Shown here one piece after another: positions 1 to 64,000 of a stretch of 64,000 nucleotides of DNA. The position numbers were made by a program, and so were the translations under genes. Source of the stretch: Eledone cirrhosa (Eukaryota); the NCBI GenBank assembly GCA_964016885.1, contig OZ024745.1:17546001-17610000 (forward strand), read 5' to 3'. Position 1 is the first letter of the stretch. Every line of letters starts with the position of its first letter. The notes beneath the pieces were generated by a model. It had not been told where the DNA came from, did not search any database, and was given only the letters and a program-made list of their open reading frames with translations.

Positions 1-3000
1 CTGAATATAATATATATATATAAGGATGTCGCTCTACATGTCTGAATATATAATATATATAAGGCTGTCGCTCTACATGTCTGAATATATAATATATATA
101 TATATAAGGCTCTCGCTCTACATGTCTGAATATATAATATATATATATAAGGCTGTCGCTCTACATGTCTGAATATAATAATATATATATATATAAGGCT
201 CTCGCTCTACATGTCTGAATATATAATATATATATATATATAAGGCTCTCGCTCTACATGTCTGAATATATAATATATATATATATAAGGCTGTCGCTCT
301 ACATGGCTGAATATATAATATATATATATAAGGCTGTCGCTCTACATGTCTGAATATATAATATTTATATATAAGGCTGTCGCTCTACATGTCTGAATAT
401 AATATATATATATATATAAGGCTGTCGCTCTACATGTCTGAATATATAATATATATAAGGCTCTCGCTCTACATGTCTGAATATATAATATATATATATA
501 AGGCTGTCCCTCTACATGTCTGAATATAATAATATATATATATATAAGGCTCTCGCTCTACATGTCTGAATATATAATATATATATATAAGGCTCTCGCT
601 CTACATGGCTGAATATATTATATATATATATAAGGCTGTCGCTCTACATGGCTGAATATATAATATATATATATAAGGCTCTCGCTCTACATGTCTGAAT
701 ATATAATATTTATAAGGCTGTCGCTCTACATGTCTGAATATATAATATATATATATAAGGATGTCGCTCTACATGTCTGAATATAATAATATATATATAT
801 ATAAGGCTCTCGCTCTACATGTCTGAATATATAATATATATATATAAGGCTCTCGCTCTACATGTCTGAATATATAATATATATATATAAGGCTGTCGCT
901 CTACATGTCTGAATATATAATATTTATAAGGCTGTCGCTCTACATGTCTGAATATATAATATATATATATATAATGCTCTCGCTCTACATGTCTGAATAT
1001 ATAATATATATATATAAGGCTGTCGCTCTACATGTCTGAATATATAATATATATAAGGCTGTCGCTCTACATGTCTGAATATATAATATATATATATAAG
1101 GCTGTCGCTCTACATGTCTGAATATAATATATATATATATATAAGGCTGTCGCTCTACATGTCTGAATATATAATATATATAAGGCTGTCGCTCTACATG
1201 TCTGAATATATAATATATATATATAAGGCTGTCGCTCTACATGTCTGAATATATAATATATATAAGGCTGTCGCTCTACATGTCTGAAAATATAATATAT
1301 ATATATAAGGCTCTCGCTCTACATGTCTGAATATATAATATATATATATAAGGCTGTCGCTCTACATGTCTGAATATATAATATATATAAGGCTGTCGCT
1401 CTACATGTCTGAATATATAATATATGTAAGGCTGTCGCTCTACATGTCTGAATATATAATATATATAAGGCTGTCGCTCTACATGTCTGAATATATAATA
1501 TATATAAGGCTGTCGCTCTACATGTCTGAATATATAATATATATAAGGCTGTCGCTCTACATGTCTGAATATATAATATATATATATAAGGCTGTCGCTC
1601 TACATGTCTGAATATATAATATATATATATATAAGGCTCTCGCTCTAGATGTCTGAATATATAATATATATAAGGCTGTCGCTCTACATGTCTGAATATA
1701 TAATATATATATATATAAGGCCGTCGCTCTACATGTCTGAATATATAATATATATAAGGCTGTCGCTCTACATGTCTGAATATATAATATATATATATAA
1801 GGCTGTCGCTCTACATGGCTGAATATATAATATATATATATATAAGGCTCTCGCTCTACATGTCTGAATATATAATATATATATATATAAGGCTCTCGCT
1901 CTAGATGTCTGAATATATAATATATATAAGGCCGTCGCTCTACATGTCTGAATATATAATATATATAAGGCTGTCGCTCTACATGTCTGAATATATAATA
2001 TATATATATAAGGCTGTCGCTCTACATGGCTGAATATATAATATATAATATATATAAGGCTGTCGCTCTACATGTCTGAATATAATAATATATATATATA
2101 AGGCTCTCGCTCTACATGTCTGAATATATAATATATATATATATAAGGCTCTCGCTCTACATGTCTGAATATATAATATATATATATATAAGGCTCTCGC
2201 TCTACATGTCTGAATATATAATATATATATATATAAGGCTCTCGCTCTACATGTCTGAATATATAATATATATATATATATAAGGCTCTCGCTCTACATG
2301 TCTGAATATATAATATATATATATATAAGGCTGTCGCTCTACATGTCTGAATATATAATATATATATATATAAGGCTGTCGCTCTACATGTCTGAATATA
2401 TAATATATATATATATATATATAAGGCTCTCGCTCTACATGTCTGAATATATAATATATATAAGGCTGTCGCTCTACATGTCTGAATATATAATATATAT
2501 AAGGCTGTCGCTCTACATGTCTGAATATATAATATATATATATATATATATAAGGCTGTCGCTCTACATGTCTGAATATATAATATATATATATATATAA
2601 GGCTGTCGCTCTACATGTCTGAATATATATTTATATATATAAGGCTGTCGCTCTACATTTCTGAATATATAATATATATAAGGCTGTCGCTCTACATGTC
2701 TGAATATATAATATATATAAGGCTGTCGCTCTACATGTCTGAATATATAATATATATATATAAGGCTGTCGCTCTACATGGCTGAATATATAATATATAT
2801 ATACAAGGCTTTTGCTCTACATGTCTGAATATATAATATATATAAGGTTGTCGCTCTACATGTCTGAATATATAATATATATATATAAGGCTGTCGCTCT
2901 ACATGTCTGAATATATAATATATATATATAAGGCTGTCGCTCTACATGTCTGAATATATAATATATATATATAAGGCTGTCGCTCTACATGTCTGAATAT

Positions 3001-6000
3001 ATAATATATGATATATATAAGGCTCTCGCTCTACATGTCTGAATATATAATATATATATATATAAGGCTGTCGCTCTACATGTCTGAATATATAATATTT
3101 ATAAGGCTGTCGCTCTACATGTCTGAATATATAATATATATAAGGCTGTCGCTCTACATGTCTGAATATATAATATTTATAAGGCTGTCGCTCTACATGT
3201 CTGAATATATAATATATATATATAAGGCTGTCGCTCTACATGTCTGAATATATAATATATATAAGGCTGTCGCTCTACATGTCTGAATATATAATATATA
3301 TATATATAAGGATGTCGCTCTACATGTCTGAATATATAATATATATATATATAAGGCTGTCGCTCTACATGTCTGAATATATAATATTTATATATATAAG
3401 GCTGTCGCTCTAGATGTCTGAACATATAATATATATATATAAGGATGTCGCTCTACATGTCTGAATATATAATATATATATAAGGCTGTCGCTCTACATG
3501 TCTGAATATATAATATATATAAGGCTGTCGCTCTACATGTCTGAATATAATATATATATATATAAGGCTGTCGCTCTACATGTCTGAATATATAATATAT
3601 ATAAGGCTGTCGCTCTACATGTCTGAATATATAATATATATAAGGCTGTCGCTCTACATGTCTGAATATATAATATTTATAAGGCTCTCGCTCTACATGT
3701 CTGAATATATAATATATATATATATAAGGCTGTCGCTCTACATGTCTGAATATATAATATATATAAGGCTGTCGCTCTACATGTCTGAATATATAATATT
3801 TATATATAAGGCTGTCGCTCTACATGTCTGAATATAATATATATATATATATAAGGCTGTCGCTCTACATGTCTGAATATATAATATATATAAGGCTGTC
3901 CCTCTACATGTCTGAATATATAATATATATATATATAAGGCTCTCGCTCTACATGTCTGAATATATAATATATATATATAAGGCTGTCGCTCTACATGTC
4001 TGAATATAATAATATATATATATATAAGGCTCTCGCTCTACATGTCTGAATATGTAATATATATATATATATAAGGCTCTCGCTCTACATGTCTGAATAT
4101 ATAATATATATATATATAAGGCTGTCGCTCTACATGGCTGAATATATAATATATATATATAAGGCTCTCGCTCTACATGTCTGAATATATAATATATATA
4201 TATATAAGGCTGTCGCTCTACATGGCTGAATATATAATATATATATAAGGCTGTCGCTCTACATGGCTGAATATATAATATATATATATAAGGCTCTCTC
4301 TCTACATGTCTGAATATATAATATTTATAAGGCTGTCGCTCTACATGTCTGAATATATAATATATATATATAAGGCTGTCGCTCTACATGTCTGAATATA
4401 TAATATTTATAAGGCTGTCACTCTACATGTCTGAATATATAATATATATATATAAGGCTGTCGCTCTACATGTCTGAATATAATATATATATATATATAA
4501 GGCTGTCGCTCTACATGTCTGAATATATAATATATATAAGGCTGTCGCTCTACATGTCTGAATATATAATATATATATATAAGGCTGTCGCTCTACATGT
4601 CTGAATATAATAATATATATATATATAAGGCTCTCGCTCTACATGTCTGAATATATAATATATATATATATATAAGGCTCTCGCTCTACATGTCTGAATA
4701 TATAATATATATATATATAAGGCTGTCGCTCTACATGGCTGAATATATAATATATATATATAAGGCTCTCGCTCTACATGTCTGAATATATAATATATAT
4801 CTATATAAGGCTGTCGCTCTACATGGCTGAATATATAATATATATATATATAAGGCTGTCGCTCTACATGGCTGAATATATAATATATATATATAAGGCT
4901 CTCGCTCTACATGTCTGAATATATAATATTTATAAGGCTGTCGCTCTACATGTCTGAATATATAATATATATATATAAGGCTGTCGCTCTACATGTCTGA
5001 ATATATAATATTTATAAGGCTGTCGCTCTACATGTCTGAATATATAATATATATAAGGCTGTCGCTCTACATGTCTGAATATATAATATATATATATATA
5101 AGGCCGTCGCTCTACATGTCTGAATATATAATATATATATATATAAGGCTGTCGCTCTACATGTCTGAATATATAATATATATATATATAAGGCTGTCGC
5201 TCTACATGGCTGAATATATAATATATATAAGGCTGTCGCTCTACATGTCTGAATATATAATATATATATATATAAGGCTGTCGCTCTACATGTCTGAATA
5301 TATAATATATATATATAAGGCTGTCGCTCTACATGTCTGAATATATAATATATATATATAAGGCTGTCGCTCTACATGTCTGAATATATAATATATATAT
5401 ATATATATAAGGCTCTCGCTCTACATGTCTGAATATATAATATATATATATATAAGGCTCTCGCTCTACATGTCTGAATATATAATATATATATATATAA
5501 GGCTGTCGCTCTACATGTCTGAATATATAATATATATAAGGCTGTCGCTCTACATGTCTGAATATATAATATATATATATATAAGGCTGTCGCTCTACAT
5601 GTCTGAATATATAATATATATAAGGCTGTCGCTCTACATGTCTGAATATATAATATATATATATATATAAGGCTGTCGCTCTACATGTCTGAATATATAA
5701 TATATATAAGGCTGTCGCTCTACATGTCTGAATATATAATATATATATATATAAGGCTGTCGCTCTACATGTCTGAATATATAATATATATAAGGCTGTC
5801 GCTCTACATGTCTGAATATATAATATATATATATAAGGCTGTCGCTCTACATGGCTGAATATATAATATATATAAGGCTGTCGCTCTACATGTCTGAATA
5901 TATAATATATATATATAAGGCTGTCGCTCTACATGGCTGAATATATAATATATATAAGGCTCTCGCTCTACATGGCTGAATATATAATATATATATATAA

Positions 6001-7133
6001 GGCTCTCGCTCTACATGGCTGAATATATAATATATATATATAAGGCTGTCGCTCTACATGTCTGAATATATAATATTTATAAGGCTGTCGCTCTACATGT
6101 CTGAATATATAATATATATAAGGCTGTCGCTCTACATGTCTGAATATATAATATATATATATATAAGGCCGTCGCTCTACATGTCTGAATATATAATATA
6201 TATATATATAAGGCTGTCGCTCTACATGTCTGAATATATAATATATATATATATAAGGCTGTCGCTCTACATGGCTGAATATATAATATATATAAGGCTG
6301 TCGCTCTACATGTCTGAATATATAATATATATATATATAAGGCTGTCGCTCTACATGTCTGAATATATAATATATATATATAAGGCTGTCGCTCTACATG
6401 TCTGAATATATAATATATATATATAAGGCTGTCGCTCTACATGTCTGAATATATAATATATATATATATATATAAGGCTCTCGCTCTACATGTCTGAATA
6501 TATAATATATATATATATAAGGCTCTCGCTCTACATGTCTGAATATATAATATATATATATATAAGGCTGTCGCTCTACATGTCTGAATATATAATATAT
6601 ATAAGGCTGTCGCTCTACATGTCTGAATATATAATATATATATATATAAGGCTGTCGCTCTACATGTCTGAATATATAATATATATAAGGCTGTCGCTCT
6701 ACATGTCTGAATATATAATATATATATATATATAAGGCTGTCGCTCTACATGTCTGAATATATAATATATATAAGGCTGTCGCTCTACATGTCTGAATAT
6801 ATAATATATATATATATAAGGCTGTCGCTCTACATGTCTGAATATATAATATATATAAGGCTGTCGCTCTACATGTCTGAATATATAATATATATATATA
6901 AGGCTGTCGCTCTACATGGCTGAATATATAATATATATAAGGCTGTCGCTCTACATGTCTGAATATATAATATATATATATAAGGCTGTCGCTCTACATG
7001 GCTGAATATATAATATATATAAGGCTCTCGCTCTACATGGCTGAATATATAATATATATATATAAGGCTCTCGCTCTACATGGCTGAATATATAATATAT
7101 ATATATAGGGCTGTCGCTCTACATGGCTGAATA
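1..7133. repeat. Minisatellite: core AAGGCTGTCGCTCTACATGTCTGAATA followed by a TATAA(TA)n-type spacer; units about 39-51 bp, roughly 160-170 units (estimate); runs off the window start
   Basis: Directly visible tandem array with recurrent variants (CTGTC/CTCTC, ATGTC/ATGGC). Identical ORF translations at 4993/6058 and 5425/6490 show a 1065 bp higher-order duplication. Confidence 0.98.
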
Positions 7134-7389
7134 CGCTAAAAATGTAATCTGAGTTTTTCGAATATTAATAAAAAAACATTCGATTCGTTTGCAATCATGC
7201 AAACAGCATATTTTTTAAAGCCATATCAGTATAATGAGCCCCTCATTATTGCTCTTGTGTTTTCATGTAAACAGAACTGCAGGCACTAATGTTTCTGGAT
7301 ATAACCCATCATCAGTACAGTTCACTGTTCTCCTGCCAACTGTCGAATCGAATATAATTATTAATATTCGAAAAGCTCATATTACATTT
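7108..7389 (-). mobile_element. Short PLE pLTR-like element with a degenerate hammerhead and a partial inverted repeat
   Basis: 7139-7186 is an imperfect inverted copy of 7344-7389. It contains an HHR scaffold at 7275-7322, and its left end equals the minisatellite core. Confidence 0.6.
7275..7322 (-). ncRNA. Degenerate type I hammerhead ribozyme
   Basis: Minus strand AACTGTA-CTGATGA-TGG(GTTATAT)CCA-GAAAC-ATTAGT-GCC-TGCAGTT: 7 bp stem I and an intact CUGANGA/GAAA core, but the cleavage triplet is GCC instead of GUC. Confidence 0.65.
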
Positions 7390-7641
7390 ATACCATAATC
7401 GTGGTTTTGTCTTTCCGTGTAATTGTTTTTCACCGCACCAAATAATGACGTATTATCTTCGTGTTTTCCCATTCTTTGCCAGGGAACGTTTCCACGAACC
7501 AAAGTATCGCCTTCCTGTCTACCTCCGGTTGCAACGTTTTCTGAAATATTGACTTCTGCATTCGCAGATTGACTTTTTTAGTTTCAGAAGATCCCGTTAA
7601 GGGTGAAAGCAGTGATTCTTTGCTTAAACTTTAATCTGTTA

Positions 7642-7699
<58 letters not shown>

Positions 7700-7806: not shown

Positions 7807-8413
7807 TATGTATATATGCACATACATATATGTGTAAAGACACACAGTATTATGTATATATATACATACATGCACACACATATATATGTACGTATGGGTT
7901 TACCGAACATTTATTATAATGTTCGGTTTGTTTGTAAACAGCCCAAATTACGCCCTACTTATATTTAGGTGTCAGCCGTACTAAGAGTGAGAAATGAAAT
8001 TTCGTTTCATTCTTTTCCATTTATCGTTTTCGGTATGCCCGGCCGACTAACTCACTCAATATGCAAACAGTCTGCACAGCCGTTAAATCATCTGACAGAA
8101 AGGTATACGATGCTGACGATAGCTAATAAGCTTGAAACTAGTACATCGTTCCTGTGTCAGTGTTGAAGAAAAGGGCGACCATGTTTGCCGAACACAGTAC
8201 GGCGTAATTTCGGATGTTTGTTTACAAACAAACCGAACATTATAATAAATGTTTGGTAAACCCATACGTACATATATATATATGTTTGCATGTATGTATA
8301 TATATACATACTACTGTGTGTCTGTACACATATATGTATGTGCGTATACATACTTATATTTAGGTATCAGCCGTACTAAGAGTGAGAAATGAAATTTCGT
8401 TTCATTCTTTTCC

Positions 8414-23886: not shown

Positions 23887-23953
23887 TATTTTATTATACA
23901 TATTTCAGAGGTACTGAGCTAACTTCAACAGTACGTCCTCATCAGATAAAATA
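23887..23953 (-). ncRNA. Type I hammerhead ribozyme in PLE 3' end
   Basis: TATTTTAT-CTGATGA-GGACGTACTG(12 nt loop)CAGTACCTCT-GAAAT-ATGT-ATA-ATAAAATA. Confidence 0.85.
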
Positions 23954-26029
23954 AGATGATGCATGACATACCCTGACACAGTAGATGGTTAAGATTCAGT
24001 CATGGTAGTGAATAAGATATGACAAAACTCAATATTTATATACCTTAAGATTGAGACATGAAAATATTTACATATAATACAGAGGGTGCATGTGAGAAAG
24101 CTTAAAAACACATAATAGCAATTTTCATAACTGTTAGAGATTCATATAATTTAAATTATTGATGAAAGAAGAAAGAAAGAAGAAAGAAAGAAGAAAGACA
24201 GAGAGAAACAGATGAGGAGAAAATATAGCTACTAGAAGTATAGAAAGCGAAAGAGAATTGATCAAGGATAGAGAGTCAAGGAGGAATAATTTCTATAGTA
24301 TAAAGCATAGGGAGGGAGATTTATATTGTCGTGTGATGAGATAATTCAGAAATTATATATATCTATAGAAACACATATATATATTGGGCATAGCTTGGTG
24401 AAAAAGTAAACTCGAATCTTTGAATTATTGAATTATCTAGAAGTATCCATCAATCTAAATATTAAATATATATGGGTGTAATTATATGAGGGTTTAATTT
24501 CGAGTCCTTAGTTAATTAGAAATATACTAACAATTAATTATATACCCTATATATATCCAAACGTATCCGGCTGACCGTTAAATTTCAAATCATATATGTT
24601 AGTTCAGAATAATGAATTAATCAAAATGTATAATATTTCAGGCTATAAATGTTTATAAATATCTATATTAATATTAAAGTATACTATCATATATAATTTA
24701 TAAAATCATATTTAAAGTAAACATGAGAAAGAAGACTTAATACGTTCATCCTCACGAAGGTAATACATATTAAATTATATTATCTTATATTATATTTAAA
24801 AAAAAAAAAGATTTTATATTGAAATAATTCACATTATATAATTTAGAAAATAATTACAGTTATAACTTTAAAAATTTTAAATTAACAATTTGAATGCCTT
24901 AAAGTATCTAAAGGCTTTATAATTAAACTTAAAAAAGGGTATTATTAAATTAGATATATGCATTTGTCTAAATATATACAAAGAGTATATTGTCTAAAGT
25001 TCAAGACGATATTAGTCAGTTATACTTAACATAATATAATATAATATAATAAATAAGTTACTGCTAATATTGTTAAAAAATTAAGGTTTTATGTACTAGA
25101 TATATACTATAAATATACAAATCAAACTTCATGAATCATAAGGATAAGAACCAGATTCAAGGTAAAAAAATAAATTGTGTACGATCATAAAAGTGCCAAA
25201 TATCTAAGCTGTATAATTTAAAAATACAAGAAAATGTTTTTTTTTTTTTTTAAGGGTCTATATTGTAGTATAATGTCATATTTAAAGTGTCTGCAACCAT
25301 GAGAAAGAGAAAACTTAAGGTAACCCGAATTTAATTAAATTAAAAAATAATAATCGTTATATAATTTAGAAAATATTTAACAATTATAACACTAGAATGT
25401 CCTTAAGTATCTAAAGTACTTATACATATAGCTAGAAACATGTTATTATACTAGATATATACATTTGTCCAAATATATATAGAGTATTCTGTTCGGAACT
25501 GAAGACGATATTAGTGATCCATATACATATAATAAATAATAAATACAATCATTGTTAGTAAAGTTATAATTGAAGTTTTACATCAAGTTAAGTGGAAAAA
25601 GTTTGTCGACTAGAATCGTGTGCGACGCATATACCATAAATATATATAAAAAATAAAAATAAATATATAAATCAAACATCCTGAATCATAAAACTAACAT
25701 ACTCCAAAAGAATAAACACACAAATACATAAATGCATGAATGATTTACGGTTCATTACAACTGTTAACCATATAAGCGATATATTCAAAAAAATATACAA
25801 GAATCCCAATCTAATTAAATGTATCTACACAATCAAATCATATGCATATAGATCAAGAGATCATGTTAACAATCTATATAATTATATACCTATACAGAAC
25901 CCATTAATCTAACATTAATCATATCATAAATGAATAAGAAATTATTATAAGGTTTTATAATCTGTTATACAGTTTTACGCACTCAGTTGATAAGAGACGT
26001 CAAAAATTAAAACCTATTTATTTAGTGTT

Positions 26030-27150
26030 TTTTCCTGACTTTTTGCGAGGCTTGGAATGTAGAGGAAGCTTTATGAAGGCAATTTGAGAATAATTCACTC
26101 TTTTAGTTAATTACATTTTCATAATTAGTAATTATTAATAGGGTCTCCATGGTACAGAGATTGCAGTTAGGTGATATTGAAGAATTCAAGTAGATTCTAC
26201 TATTACACAGCTTCGACCATGAAATCGAGTATTTTAAATTTTTGTCTTTTAACGACCATATAAGTTGTGATAAAGAAGTCGAAGATTTCCTATTAGGATT
26301 CGAAAAAGAGCATTTGTGATTCGAAAATCTTGATTTAAATGTCGATGAAGTTGCACCCATATAGGTGTATGTGATGTTATTTGCTTTTACGGTGCATTTA
26401 TAGACCAGATTGCTATCCAGACAATTATTTTGCAGAGGGCAATTTGGTCTATTTCTACAATTACATTTCGATTTATTGTTATTACTATAAATTGGACAAC
26501 TTACATTAACATTATTAGTACTTTGAAGTGTTACAGTGCTTAGATTAATGTTATTGTTATTCCTAGTATTAATATTGCGAGTGTTATTATATTCATTATC
26601 GTTAAATGTTTGTTGATTATGATTTAGAATTCTACTATTTATTTTTGCGATGTTCTGGGCCATATTCATAGTTGTAGTATAAGAAAGCTTAATTGTGTTT
26701 CTGTTAAATATGGAACGGTATTTGTGTTGAATGGGGAAGGATTTATCTAAAGCTTTAAAGAATAGATTTTCGAGTGGTGTTTTTATTGGTACAGAGGCCG
26801 GGGAAGGGGGTGGGGCACACACCATATAACTGATTTAGCTCTGATTTTTTTCACCGATTTGTTCACGGTACAGGTATATTTATTACAATTTTTAGAATCT
26901 CGTTTACATATGTTAGTCTTATTTTTATCAGGATCATAATTCAAATTATTCTTATCTATATATTCAATATTATCTTTATCATCTGCCTTTCATAGCGCGT
27001 CATTATAATATCCTGCTTTTTTATCAAACATGGATATTCTAGTTATGCGTTTCTGTACATTATTGACTATTGCATTTTTCACGGATTTAGGGTGATTAGA
27101 GTAATAGCTAACATAATTTAAGTTTTCATTGGGCTTATGGAAAGGGTAAT
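26030..27150 (-). pseudogene. Disrupted PLE polyprotein C-terminus (RT thumb, Zn linker, GIY-YIG endonuclease)
   Basis: CNCRNRPNCPLQNNC, LVYKCTV..YMGATSSTFKSRFSNH, CNLCTME; premature stops. Confidence 0.88.
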
Positions 27151-27173
27151 AAATATATATATATCTATCTATC

Positions 27174-28333
27174 TAAGGCGGGTTAAATTCCCGAGATCCA
27201 TGGACGAGTTCTCTCCAGCGGTCTCTGTCCCTCATTATCGCTGCCATGTCCTGCATCTCCAACAGACCAGTGTCTGTCCTTAGGGCATCAACATACGTTA
27301 ACCTTGGTATTCCTCTTCTAGTGTGTCCATATAGGGGCTCCCAAAGGAGTACTGAGTGCAATGTCAACTCTGGATGTCGGTGAGCATGTCCAGATAACCT
27401 CAGTCTCCTCTGTGTCACCTTTGAGCTGACTTTTGGGATGCTCCCATACAGCTCTGAGTTTTTCATCCTCAGTGTATACTGATTAATGTTCAGAGCCATC
27501 CTCAGCATTCTCGTGTAGCACCCATCCACCATCTGAGTGAGTTTCTTGGTCAGTGTCCAAGTCTCAGACCCATACAGCAGCACAGACTCCACTACAGCAA
27601 TGAAGAGGCGGATTTTCAGGTCTCTACGAAGGTCCGACTTCCACACCGATCTCAGGCTGTGGCACGCCGCCCAGGCCTTGCTCTTCCTCTCAACCACATC
27701 ATCTTCCGTATTCCCAATCTTTGCTCCCAAATACAGGAAGTCCTAAACCAATTCCAGCGGCTTCCCGTCTACATTAGTGATCCCCTCTGGCTTCTCAACA
27801 TTCTCTACCAGATATTTTGTTTTAGTCTCATTCCTTCTCAGCCCCACATTCATCGACACAGTCTCAACCTCCCGCATCAAATTCTCTGCCTCCTTCACTG
27901 TATTTGTCACCAAAATTATGTCGTCGGCAAATTCAGCATCCGATACCTTTTTCGCCCTAACTCTCCTGCTCTGAGCCGGTGCTACAGTAAAGCCAGAGTT
28001 CTGCTGTTTCTCCAGTGCATGGCGCATACAATAGTCCACTACGATGATAAAAAGGTAGGAAGCCAATGTATCTCCCTGGAGCACTCCAGCCAGTATCTCA
28101 AAGAACTCTGTCATCCCATCAGGTGTAATGACTTGGGCTTTGGTGTTGGTGTAGAGCAGTGATATCAGGTCCACTATCCTCTTGGGGATTCCATAAGCCT
28201 GTAAGATCTTCATCAGGCAGTAAGGGTCGACAGAATCAAAGGCCTTCCTAAAGTCAATGAAAACAATGACCGCAGGAAGGCACTTTGCTCTAGCTCCCTC
28301 TAATATCCTCGTCAGCATCAGGATGTGACTGGT

Positions 28334-28336
<3 letters not shown>
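27174..28336 (-). mobile_element. 5'-truncated RTE-clade LINE (RT domain), one in-frame stop
   Basis: FIDFRKAFDSV, GVLQGDTLA, FADDI, LLYGSETW; TAG at 27743-27745 splits the frame; TAGA/TA tail. Confidence 0.95.
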
Positions 28337-28383
<47 letters not shown>

Positions 28384-28519
28384 AAAGTTCTATTTAAATT
28401 GTTGGGATACAACAAGTAAATATTTGTATAACTGATATAACTGATATAAAGCACTCGACAAGTATTTGGAGTAGATATACGATATTAACAAATGGAAACT
28501 ATATTTATAAAACCATATT

Positions 28520-28584
28520 TATTTCATTATACATATTTCAAGGATACCAAGTTAAATTATGGTATGCCTTCATCAGACAAAATA
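28520..28584 (-). ncRNA. Type I hammerhead ribozyme (left arm of large palindrome)
   Basis: TATTTTGT-CTGATGA-AGGCATACCA(10 nt loop)TGGTATCCTT-GAAAT-ATGT-ATA-ATGAAATA. Confidence 0.83.
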
Positions 28585-45496: not shown

Positions 45497-45865
45497 CCTA
45501 ATCAATACAAGACTTTAACATGTGAATCTACTTCGAATTTTCTTATTCTAAATATACTCCTAGTTGGAAAAAGTAGGGTGAGTGCCTGGATTGAGTTGCA
45601 TCAATGTTTACCGTAAGGATCTAGCTCCTCAATGTAGAGCGCTTTATGGCGTAACCAATATATATATATTTATTTATCCTATATCTCAGATCAGTAGGCT
45701 TTGACCAGATATAAATAATAGGAAAAGAGAGGAAATGAAATTATATAGTGATTTTAGATATTAAATACATACACCTTACTATGAAAATTGATTTGATCAA
45801 ATTCTGAAAATATTGCATCTCTAACTCTTATTTTTTTTTATTATTACTTCGTACTGGACTTCCAG

Positions 45866-46401
45866 GTGTTGCTGCAGGAGGTTTGTTCAGTGATACAGGA
45901 GGTGGAAGCAATATTCTTTGTCTTCCAATGGATCCAGTCTGGGGAAACTTCACGGAAGCTGTAGAAACAGCATCAACCATATATGGAAGTGAGTATGAAT
46001 TATCAGGTTATAAGAAGACTCCTAAAATGGGTCTATTCCTCCGAACTAATTCCGACAATTTACATGATCATAATATACCCTGTGTTATGTGTGAAACCAA
46101 TGGACCAGCAACTGTAATGATGCTGCCGGGAAGAAACGAATGTTATACTGGTTGGTACTTGGAATATTCTGGATATTTAATGACTTCTCACTGGAAGCAT
46201 TCAGGGAGAACAGCTTATTTGTGTATCGACAAAGAACCTGAAGACGATAGATGTGGTCACCGAAATGAAAATGGAGCTCTATTTTATCATGTACAGGCAC
46301 AATGTGGTTCTCTTCCCTGTCCACCTTATAGAAATAATCAAGAGATAACATGTTGTGTGTGTAGCAAAAGACCTGACTCGATGAGAGGAGAACTTTCTTA
46401 A
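45866..46401 (+). CDS. Terminal coding exon: short-chain collagen C4-like cysteine-rich domain
   Basis: TTCCAG acceptor; GGGSNILCLP.DP.W, IYGSEYE, HDHNIPCVMC, PGRNECYTGWYLEYSGYLM, NGALFYHV..CGSLPCPPY..EITCCVCSK. The four exons total 807 nt, in frame. Confidence 0.93.
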
Positions 46402-61250: not shown

Positions 61251-64000
61251 TATTTCGTTTCTGAATTTGTTTAGCAAGATTCTTTATCTGAAATCGTGTG
61301 TTGAAACCGATATGGTTGTACTTTGGGAGGGTCATGTTGCCAATAAGAAACACACGCACCAGTTGCTTCACTTCAATTTATTATAATAAATTTATAAATT
61401 TAGGAATTTATAAATTTCCGGTTGGTTGGTTGGTTGTTACCATAATCAGATGGTTGTTTATATATTGTCAAAGTTCTTTCGTCACACATTCTGTGACCTC
61501 TTCAGTGACTGGGAATTCTTTTCTTTGTTTTTGTGCCTCTCATTTGTTCTGTCCTATGCCATTTTGTTTCTGTGTGTGTGTTGTGTGCTCACTCTGCGCA
61601 TGCGCCACATCCGGGTGTCTGTGTGTGTTTATATTCGTTTATTTATTTGTTTATTTACATGTTACAGGTTGGTTGTTTGTTCTATGTGCGTGTGTGTTTT
61701 AATTTTGTCCTTAATTGTAAGTTGTGATGTTGCTGTTCCACTCATATTTTCTATTTAATTTTGGTTGTAATTCTTTTATGTTTATTGCCTGTAAACATTG
61801 CGTCTTTTCTGTGTGTAGATTCTATTTTTATTTCTATGTTCTCTAATTTACCCTTATGTTCTATTTTAGCATGTTGGTAGGGTACGGATGATTCTTTACT
61901 ATCTTGAAGGTCGCGCCAGTGTTCATTTATCCGTTCCCCTATACTACGAGCTGTCTCATCTATGTACACTATATTTATGTCTCTACAGTGTCCTTCAGTA
62001 CAGCTTATGCTATTTACTACATTTCTAATTTTACAGTTAATATGGGGCTTAATTTACAGGTTATACATTTCTTATCTATACAGGGGGGTCTTTGAAAGGG
62101 GTATGTCTTGCTAATAAGTGTTTTTACGGAGGTACCTGGTCTTTCTACTATCTTAATATTGAGTTTATGTTTGTCTAGGGCCCTTCTAAATTTGTAAGCT
62201 AATTCACCTCTAGGGGTTGTATCGATGAACATTACACTCTGGTATTTATTGCTATCATACCATGAGTTTATTCTATTAGCCTTATTCCTAGTTCTTTCTA
62301 TTCTATTCCAAAATTTGAACCTATACAAGGGGCAGGTCCCATTTGTGTCATTATTTACCATTTTTTCCCATTTGGTTCTGGCTCCTCTATACACTGTGAT
62401 TTTATCTCTCTGATTGTAACCAGAGAACTGCATACGGTGGATGAAGTGTTGTATGTGTCTCTCTAGTTCTTCGGGGTTGCACATGCGGGACACGTTTCTC
62501 ATCACCCGTACCAAATCCGCAATCAGTATGTTGATTTTGGTATGGTCCGAAACAGCTGAGTTTCGGTGGATCAGATATTTGGAAGTCATGGGTTTGGCAT
62601 AATGGGAATGAAGGATTTGTTTTTTGTTATTAATGGTATCTAACCAGAGCACTGTGTCTAATACAGGTAATCGATGGTTGGGGTGTTTACTTGGGTAGTC
62701 TATAGTAACTCTAATACTCTGGTGGATGGAGTTAGTAATTTGCTGGATGCTTTCCATTGTGTTTTTCTTTAATTCCTGACTGTTCTCTAGTAGGGGTGTT
62801 TTAACTACGATGTTTATATCATCAACGTAGCGGGAGTACATAATCAGGGTTAAGGGGTCTTCTAATTGTTCTTTAAGTTTAAGTTTAAGTCTACTGTCCC
62901 ACCATACCATGAATAAGTTAGCTATGTCGCCTGCAATGCTAACACCAAATGGCTGCTCCTTCCTCTTGGGCATATGTTTTTCCATTAAATTTGAACATAT
63001 GTTCCTTAAGGGTTAATTTTATGCTGGCCTCCACCGCATGTGCAATCATTTTCTTCAGTTCATCGTGGTTTTCAGGTGTCCGTATGGCTCTCGTCCACCC
63101 GTTCCATCTATCTGTGTGGGTTTTCTTGGCCATTGAGGTAATGGTAGGTGGTCTGCCTCTTGCTGGTCTTGTAGGGTACAAGTTGCTAAGGTCATATGTG
63201 TCTAGCTAATTATTACTATAGGTAAGTTTAAGTAGGAGTCCCAGCTCACCGGTGTCAATCCCACAGAACTCAACATTGCTCTCACTGATCATTTCTACGC
63301 ATTTCTCCACAGTAAAATCCACATCAATAGATGGATACAGGGACACAACATCCATACTACCTATTATGCAGTTTGTTAGGTCCCTAGATCGGTTACTCTC
63401 GCCGATTCTGCTGAGGAGGTCCTCCGTGCTGTCACATACATCTGTGAACATTTCATTGATGGGGCGTATGATCAGGGAACGGAATTAGGACAGTCTGTAG
63501 TTACTAGCAATGTTAGCTCCACAGACTGGCCGTGTTGGTGGTCCCGTGACAGGGTCACCGCCCGTTTTATGGTCTTTTCGAAGCCCATACAACGCCGGCA
63601 CGTCCTTGTTCCAGGCCTGGAAGTTGTTGGCAGTCCTTTTGTTGGGCTGCATTATATTCGTCCACATCACCATATGGGCATTGAGGGCTTTTTCTCTATC
63701 CTCATGCTCCTGTGGTGTTACTTCTCCTGTGTTGGTGATGTGGGGTTGCCTGGATGTAGTTTGGCAGGCTGGCAACCGACATTCTGCCAGACTTGTCTGT
63801 TGGAAAGCATGCTATCTCTCCATTACGCGAGCTCTGCATGAGCTTACGCAAGCCATTTGCAGACTTTTCTCTCAATTGCGGGGTCTCCATTCTATTATGC
63901 TTCTTGCTATACTCTTCTATAATATTTCTAAGTTCGGATCTAGCTATACTAAATTGTGCTTCTGTTTGTTCATCGACCTCCGACGGCAATTGCGTGCGTT
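61251..64000 (-). mobile_element. Penelope-like retroelement (Neptune-type linker), disrupted RT + GIY-YIG ORF with 3' pLTR; continues past the window end
   Basis: PTDKSG, GSMDVVSLYPSI, FNGKTYAQEEGAAI/GVSIAGDIANLFM, YSRYVDDI, LPVLD, CIDKKCITC, YIDETARSIGERINEH; several stops and frameshifts. Confidence 0.93.
61467..61509 (-). ncRNA. Minimal type I hammerhead in PLE pLTR
   Basis: GTCA-CTGAAGA-G-GTCACA(GAATG)TGTGAC-GAAAG-AA-CTT-TGAC, about 240 nt downstream of the GIY-YIG frame. Confidence 0.75.

Follow-up and report, generated by a model that had tools for sequence, protein, structure and literature searches.

The window, a 64,000-nt stretch of the 3.0-Gb Eledone cirrhosa genome (G000:C5:17546001-17610000), begins inside a minisatellite that occupies positions 1-7133 on the forward strand. 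TRF counted 167 repeats of a ~43-bp unit between positions 5 and 7133, and inspection of 30 kb upstream of the window followed the array for a further 6.1 kb, to window coordinate about -6125 (G000:C5:17539875). The whole array measures 13,260 bp (~13.3 kb) and holds 311 units; the 7-kb minisatellite of the preliminary description is real and longer than was reported there. Both ends of the array pass into ordinary flank without N. At the far end, (TA)9 is followed by an AT-rich linker and then by a truncated first unit, and this junction occurs a single time in the genome, with no match to a known repeat. One read from four public runs, which include no long reads, aligned to the far flank.

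Each unit consists of AGGCTG, a 20-nt tail shared with a dispersed element, and a spacer of the TATATAA(TA)n type. Unit length ranges from 39 to 51 bp, and about half of it is (TA)n target DNA. The canonical spacer reads TATATAA(TA)nA, with n = 4, 6 and 7 in 81, 71 and 68 cases, respectively, and n = 5 in just 2 of the 239 canonical spacers. At one core position T replaces the family G in 282/311 units, so the expectation that all upstream units repeat the same element end did not hold. The family 20-mer is matched exactly by 29 of the 311 units, and the unit adjacent to the element body keeps the G. These template-like G units number 17 among the last 77 units and 12 among the first 234, an excess near the body that a 1,065-bp duplication explains in part and that is compatible with conversion starting at that end.

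The last unit continues uninterrupted into 7134-7344. This continuity had been noted before, and it stands; the sequence that follows had been taken for a unique element, and its internal 19-mer has 4,942 exact matches in the genome. A query of 7109-7400 returned 2,981 candidate loci, 40 of which were scored. Identity to the window element is 84-90% for the best 29 other loci, and most of these alignments begin at query position 6, that is, at window position 7114. The family end is the 20-mer at 7114-7133 (minus strand), rather than the 27-mer proposed earlier; it is an extension that only some copies have, located where cDNA synthesis presumably begins. The tail 20-mer has 2,669 exact genome matches, comprising the 29 in the array and 2,640 elsewhere. 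The preceding GGCTG (7109-7113, plus strand) is private to the array locus, being found ahead of 0 of the 76 other tail copies, and may partly duplicate the ATGGCTG of the tail itself.

The element body (7134-7344, minus strand) was delimited by similarity to the 29 best loci and by monomer spacing. It is 5'-truncated and represents about half of a monomer of 379-441 bp, the spacing of head-to-tail monomers seen at 8 loci. We also confirmed the partial inverted repeat that had been described beside it: the arm at 7344-7392 (minus strand) is a second short copy of 7137-7187 with 84% identity, from the tail-less start site, and such inverted arms are frequent among family loci. The right flank (7389-7645, plus strand) belongs to a different dispersed repeat, 87.6% identical over 257 bp to locus L029, which carries its own hammerhead-like motif near 7585. 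Thirty family loci, picked by their order along the genome, were sorted by form: the tail stands at the start in 10, the start lies ~25 bases further inward in 14, a single locus is a tandem junction, and the remaining 5 have other forms. The one monomer tested has no coding ORF; its longest stretch free of stops is 62 aa on the strand that carries the ribozyme and 110 aa on the opposite strand. The family displays partial tandems and inverted arms, an optional tail and microsatellite targets, all traits of Penelope-like elements (PLEs). The parent is probably a dispersed, non-coding, hammerhead-carrying element, either a non-autonomous PLE or a retrozyme, and likely PLE-mobilised. This agrees with the earlier proposal that a hammerhead-bearing PLE-type element supplied the unit from its end on the cDNA-start side. 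A search for an autonomous partner through one abundant GIY-YIG-like family (30 loci) did not find it, the hammerhead there being a different one.

The minus-strand hammerhead scaffold reported previously was confirmed at 7274-7323. By motif and alignment it is a type-I hammerhead with an 8-bp stem I, CUGAUGA, stem II, GAAA and a short stem III, and it has an extra A between stem II and GAAA. In the best 29 loci, CUGANGA is present in 25/29, GAAA in 29/29 and an NUH triplet in 25/29, with all three in 21/29. When 18 of these copies were aligned, 96% of cells across the three helices were paired, compared with 18-49% in slid controls. The same alignment contains no compensatory pair, so the assigned fold rests on the core motif and not on covariation. 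An Rfam scan at gathering thresholds gave no match in the window, and minimum free energy (MFE) folding of 7270-7325 failed to yield the hammerhead fold (z = -2.5). The cleavage triplet of an active hammerhead follows the NUH rule. The window copy has GCC instead, indicating that its ribozyme is likely dead. At position 7283 the family letter is also present in public runs, although the reads aligned to the element body came partly from other family copies and their alleles are not separable.

The preliminary description had read the (TA)n as a (UA)n tail of the element RNA on which synthesis could have re-primed. At true monomer junctions this tail is missing in 19/19 cases, and an A-rich linker precedes the family tail there. 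A further candidate junction (L144) was a loose-motif false match within flank and was excluded. (TA)n adjoins 41 of 51 insertion starts, and some of the other starts adjoin (GT)n or different simple repeats. Since (TA)n lies at insertion starts yet is missing from monomer junctions, it is target DNA, with no sign of an RNA tail.

The array itself records how its units multiplied. The youngest higher-order block (4954-7133, plus strand) comprises a 1,065-bp segment of 25 units present twice in tandem; the two copies differ by 2 mismatches in 1,090 compared bases, and the second copy ends the array. Identical runs of unit plus spacer reappear 25, 54 and 87 units apart, scoring 24, 17 and 9, respectively, whereas the highest score in 100 shuffles was 6. 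Rare variants recur with the 54- and 87-unit spacing at units 69/123/210, 72/126/214 and 52/105/192, and the blocks of 54 and 87 units are older and have diverged from each other. Multiplication of the copies took place at the DNA level, through nested blocks 25, 54 and 87 units long; the higher-order blocks and shared private variants bear out the earlier remark that DNA-level amplification contributed later. The spacer had been described as variable, which re-priming would explain. Its lengths cluster at 4, 6 and 7 TA with 5 almost missing, which fits inheritance and not random re-priming, and the spacer variation is passed on in blocks. Moreover, a repeat-adding reverse transcriptase (RT) would copy the G every time, and the units with T show that the array is not template-faithful. 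Unrelated minisatellites of 19-45 bp are common in the Eledone cirrhosa genome, and tandem duplications also occur inside family copies (L005 and L146). The duplication scan, over 27,224 family bases, gives a lower bound, as the imperfect case at L146 escaped it. The behaviour of the array is that of neutral repetitive DNA, and we put forward no function for it.

We then considered how often the tail is reiterated elsewhere. In the 3.0-Gb genome, all 271 matches to the unit pattern and all 286 matches to a tandem pattern (period 21-51) lie inside this array, while two-copy reiteration of the tail was found at the insertion starts of four further loci (L094, L095, L096 and L120). Tandem tail copies at independent insertions, as foreseen in the preliminary description, therefore exist in two-copy form, with no other array. 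It had also named two observations that would speak against its own reading, a 27-mer absent from the ends of other family members and tandem reiteration confined to this locus, and both were largely what we found. Outside the array there are never more than two tail copies among the matches listed. L120 has the form stub-(TA)37-full copy, exactly as predicted for a restart of synthesis. At L106 one duplication covers non-element flank as well as the tail, and it sits at the opposite end of an insertion. A candidate doubled tail at L121 was dropped as a chance 8-mer from a neighbouring repeat. A wider tandem search gave 234 matches, and among the 100 listed one was family-related (L106). Five unrelated arrays were inspected and none adjoins a family copy, hence the 11-13-mer they share was taken as chance.

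With one search pattern, doubled tails amount to 3 of ~2,640, about 0.1% of tails. For an internal site, the corresponding control yielded 2 of 4,942 (L128 and L129), both at an insertion edge (Fisher, p = 0.35 with the two counted). When only true interior duplications are counted at the control site, the comparison becomes 3/2,640 against 0/4,942 (Fisher, p = 0.04). In L129 the second copy begins further upstream than the first, an arrangement that simple slippage would not produce. Doubling of starts is thus a rare event, perhaps commoner at the edges of insertions than elsewhere; RT restart, slippage beside unstable (TA)n and templated repair synthesis could each give rise to it.

The origin of the unit from the element tail, the single-locus distribution and the block structure are direct observations, and the explanation in which we have good confidence is that a minisatellite of 13 kb formed at one locus from the element tail and grew by DNA slippage and block duplication after insertion. 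The course of events would be as follows. A PLE RT/GIY-YIG enzyme would have introduced a nick at a (TA)n target and begun copying the element RNA at an internal site within the tail, making the plus strand the first cDNA strand, with the inverted arm at the other end. The tail and the adjacent (TA)n would then have been doubled via ATA microhomology, and unequal exchange or slippage would have driven growth. For the doubling that seeded the array, our own estimate somewhat favours DNA slippage, gives a single RT restart a clearly smaller share and regards two successive insertions as improbable. Against this explanation count the doubled starts elsewhere, the forms of L120 and L129, the position of both control matches at an insertion edge and the search for the cognate RT, which did not find it. 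So do the truncation of the first unit and the additional GGCTG; these two look like aborted starts and are the best hints for restart, though later erosion of the array end would have a similar appearance.

A seed laid down by RT restart would differ from this explanation in the seeding step only. The PLE RT would copy 13-20 bases, release, realign by microhomology of 2-4 bases and restart, leaving two or three partial tails, and DNA-level expansion would supply the rest. We regard such a seed as a tentative possibility. The four other loci with doubled tails speak for it, as do the position of both interior-control matches at insertion edges, the lower p value obtained with interior duplications alone, and the two features of the array just named; in addition, the available part of PMC11167929 describes PLE RT initiating at internal RNA sites without target homology. 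Nevertheless, doubling affects a very small fraction of tails, each doubled tail also fits slippage beside unstable (TA)n or templated repair synthesis, the L106 duplication takes in flank DNA, and duplications exist in the interior of copies too. That PLE RT occasionally restarts once at initiation, in a single translocation of the telomerase-like kind, leaving doubled tails in ~0.1% of insertions, and that this array came from one of them, seems to us rather doubtful.

Telomerase-like processive repeat addition, in which the RT itself lays down many units by re-priming on a (UA)n tail, was the reading of the preliminary description, and we now consider it highly improbable. In its favour, the array lies on the cDNA-start side and keeps phase with the element, G units that resemble the template are somewhat commoner near the body, and PLE RTs and telomerase RT share common ancestry according to the portion of PMC8557442 available. 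However, one array among thousands of element copies, most units off-template at a fixed site, nested block duplications with discontinuous spacer lengths, and a monomer without (UA)n all stand against it, and the single-locus distribution together with the variant pattern already largely refutes it. A different concern is that part of the array length could be an assembly artefact, the 1,065-bp duplication or other blocks having been mis-joined from long reads. The near identity of the two 1,065-bp copies would suit such an error, and the six public runs listed include no long-read run. We judge it unlikely, because the mutual divergence of the 54- and 87-unit blocks resembles that of real duplications and the array ends join ordinary flanks without N.

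As established, the array is of little weight, one further retroelement-derived minisatellite. It is also a clear birth record, in which the parent element, the origin of the unit and the nested duplications are all legible. The hammerhead family, with its two start sites and rare doubled starts, offers a defined template and a signature, countable in the genome, for asking whether PLE RT can re-prime, a step that bears on the origin of telomerase repeat addition. If true, RT restart would provide genomic evidence that repeat addition exists in rudimentary form among the retroelements most closely related to telomerase. In the openly available literature we found no report of a minisatellite derived from the tail of a PLE, although this is weak evidence that none exists, and no result on PLE repeat addition or on abortive TPRT repeats.

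Telomerase and the bacterial DRT10 system, as presented in the available part of PMC12632851, resemble this locus in their short tandem repeats, structured RNA and related RT family. They make template-faithful repeats repeatedly, whereas the array units are off-template, inherited in blocks and confined to one locus; template fidelity, recurrence and a realignment tail were the telomerase-like features tested, and none was seen here. The family also resembles EN+ PLEs, for which the accessible text of PMC8557442 lists partial tandems, inverted arms, an optional tail and microsatellite targets, and that of PMC11167929 describes a tail, not always present, that lies between two internal sites where the RT starts. 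Like them, the family shows 5' truncation and partial tandems, has an inverted arm, carries the tail in some copies only and is biased towards (TA)n targets, and it differs in that its monomer lacks an RT/GIY-YIG ORF. Non-LTR retrozymes, or non-autonomous PLE pLTR derivatives, as outlined in the available parts of bioRxiv 10.64898/2026.07.22.740005 and PMC4209133, appear similar in their non-coding partial-tandem monomers of ~0.4 kb, their type-I hammerhead with short stem III and their many dispersed copies. Retrozyme arrays repeat the whole ribozyme monomer, whereas here the 20-nt tail alone was amplified and the unit contains no ribozyme.

The array has its nearest counterparts among retroelement-derived satellites, arising from part of an element with a terminal unit that continues into it, and holding hundreds of homogeneous units with locus-specific variants. 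SINE-derived satellites of squamates keep one longer terminal unit, and most of their primary duplications stay single instances, according to the available text of PMC10702118. The portion of PMC6947457 available covers minisatellites derived from Alu/B1, together with the Haber-Louis model, in which minisatellites are born from short repeats. Unlike the SINE-derived satellites, the array has a hammerhead-bearing PLE-type parent, a short unit that is half (TA)n, and a single locus. It is a retroelement-derived minisatellite of known kind, produced by ordinary DNA amplification.

At one locus elsewhere in the genome (L120:1480-1625; G000:C5:24.41 Mb), the family's 20-nt tail is found as a stub followed by (TA)37 and then by a full copy. 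With the pattern used in the search, this was the only locus other than the array in which the tail passes directly into (TA)n, and it is a natural model for the seed state of the array, the first duplication of the tail before array growth. Short direct duplications also edge very short insertions near position 1500 of two further loci, L128 and L129. These insertions begin at an internal site of the element; at L129, the start of the second copy lies upstream of that of the first. At L005:1214-1400, a 66-bp subrepeat from the interior of this family's element has expanded into several tandem copies.

Besides the hammerhead of the main element, eight more type-I hammerhead-like motifs were found in the 64-kb window (+7585, +8113, +38142, +39521, -61505, -51310, -28576 and -23945), none of which was detected at Rfam gathering thresholds (0/8). 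They belong to at least four repeat families other than that of the main element. The motif at 8113 is enclosed by the 134-bp inverted arms of a further element (7807-8352). The motif at 7580-7628 (+) has CAGAAGA where CUGANGA is expected; this core is shared by loci L029 and L024, while a second L024 copy carries the canonical CTGAAGA, and the family to which the motif belongs is very abundant in sequencing reads.

A 197-aa cysteine-containing open frame (45808-46398, +) has the appearance of a real coding exon, with no Pfam match at E 0.01.

A GIY-YIG-like PLE family (L098:2811-3482, L161-L189) is very abundant in the genome, with 13,988 candidates; in 19 of 30 loci, a compact hammerhead of its own lies 340-670 bases downstream. 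Within the window, the minus-strand motifs at 23945 and 28576 are two hammerheads that resemble each other and are separated by 4.6 kb. Between them lies a 243-aa ORF remnant (26834-26106, -) without a Pfam match, whose motifs resemble those of a PLE endonuclease region. The interval 23945-28576 (-) is probably what remains of a complete PLE that had two pLTRs, the terminal repeats of such elements, and has since decayed. A 331-aa RT remnant (62020-63012, -) gave a weak, below-cut-off match to RVT_1 (E = 0.001), and its motifs are reminiscent of PLE RTs.
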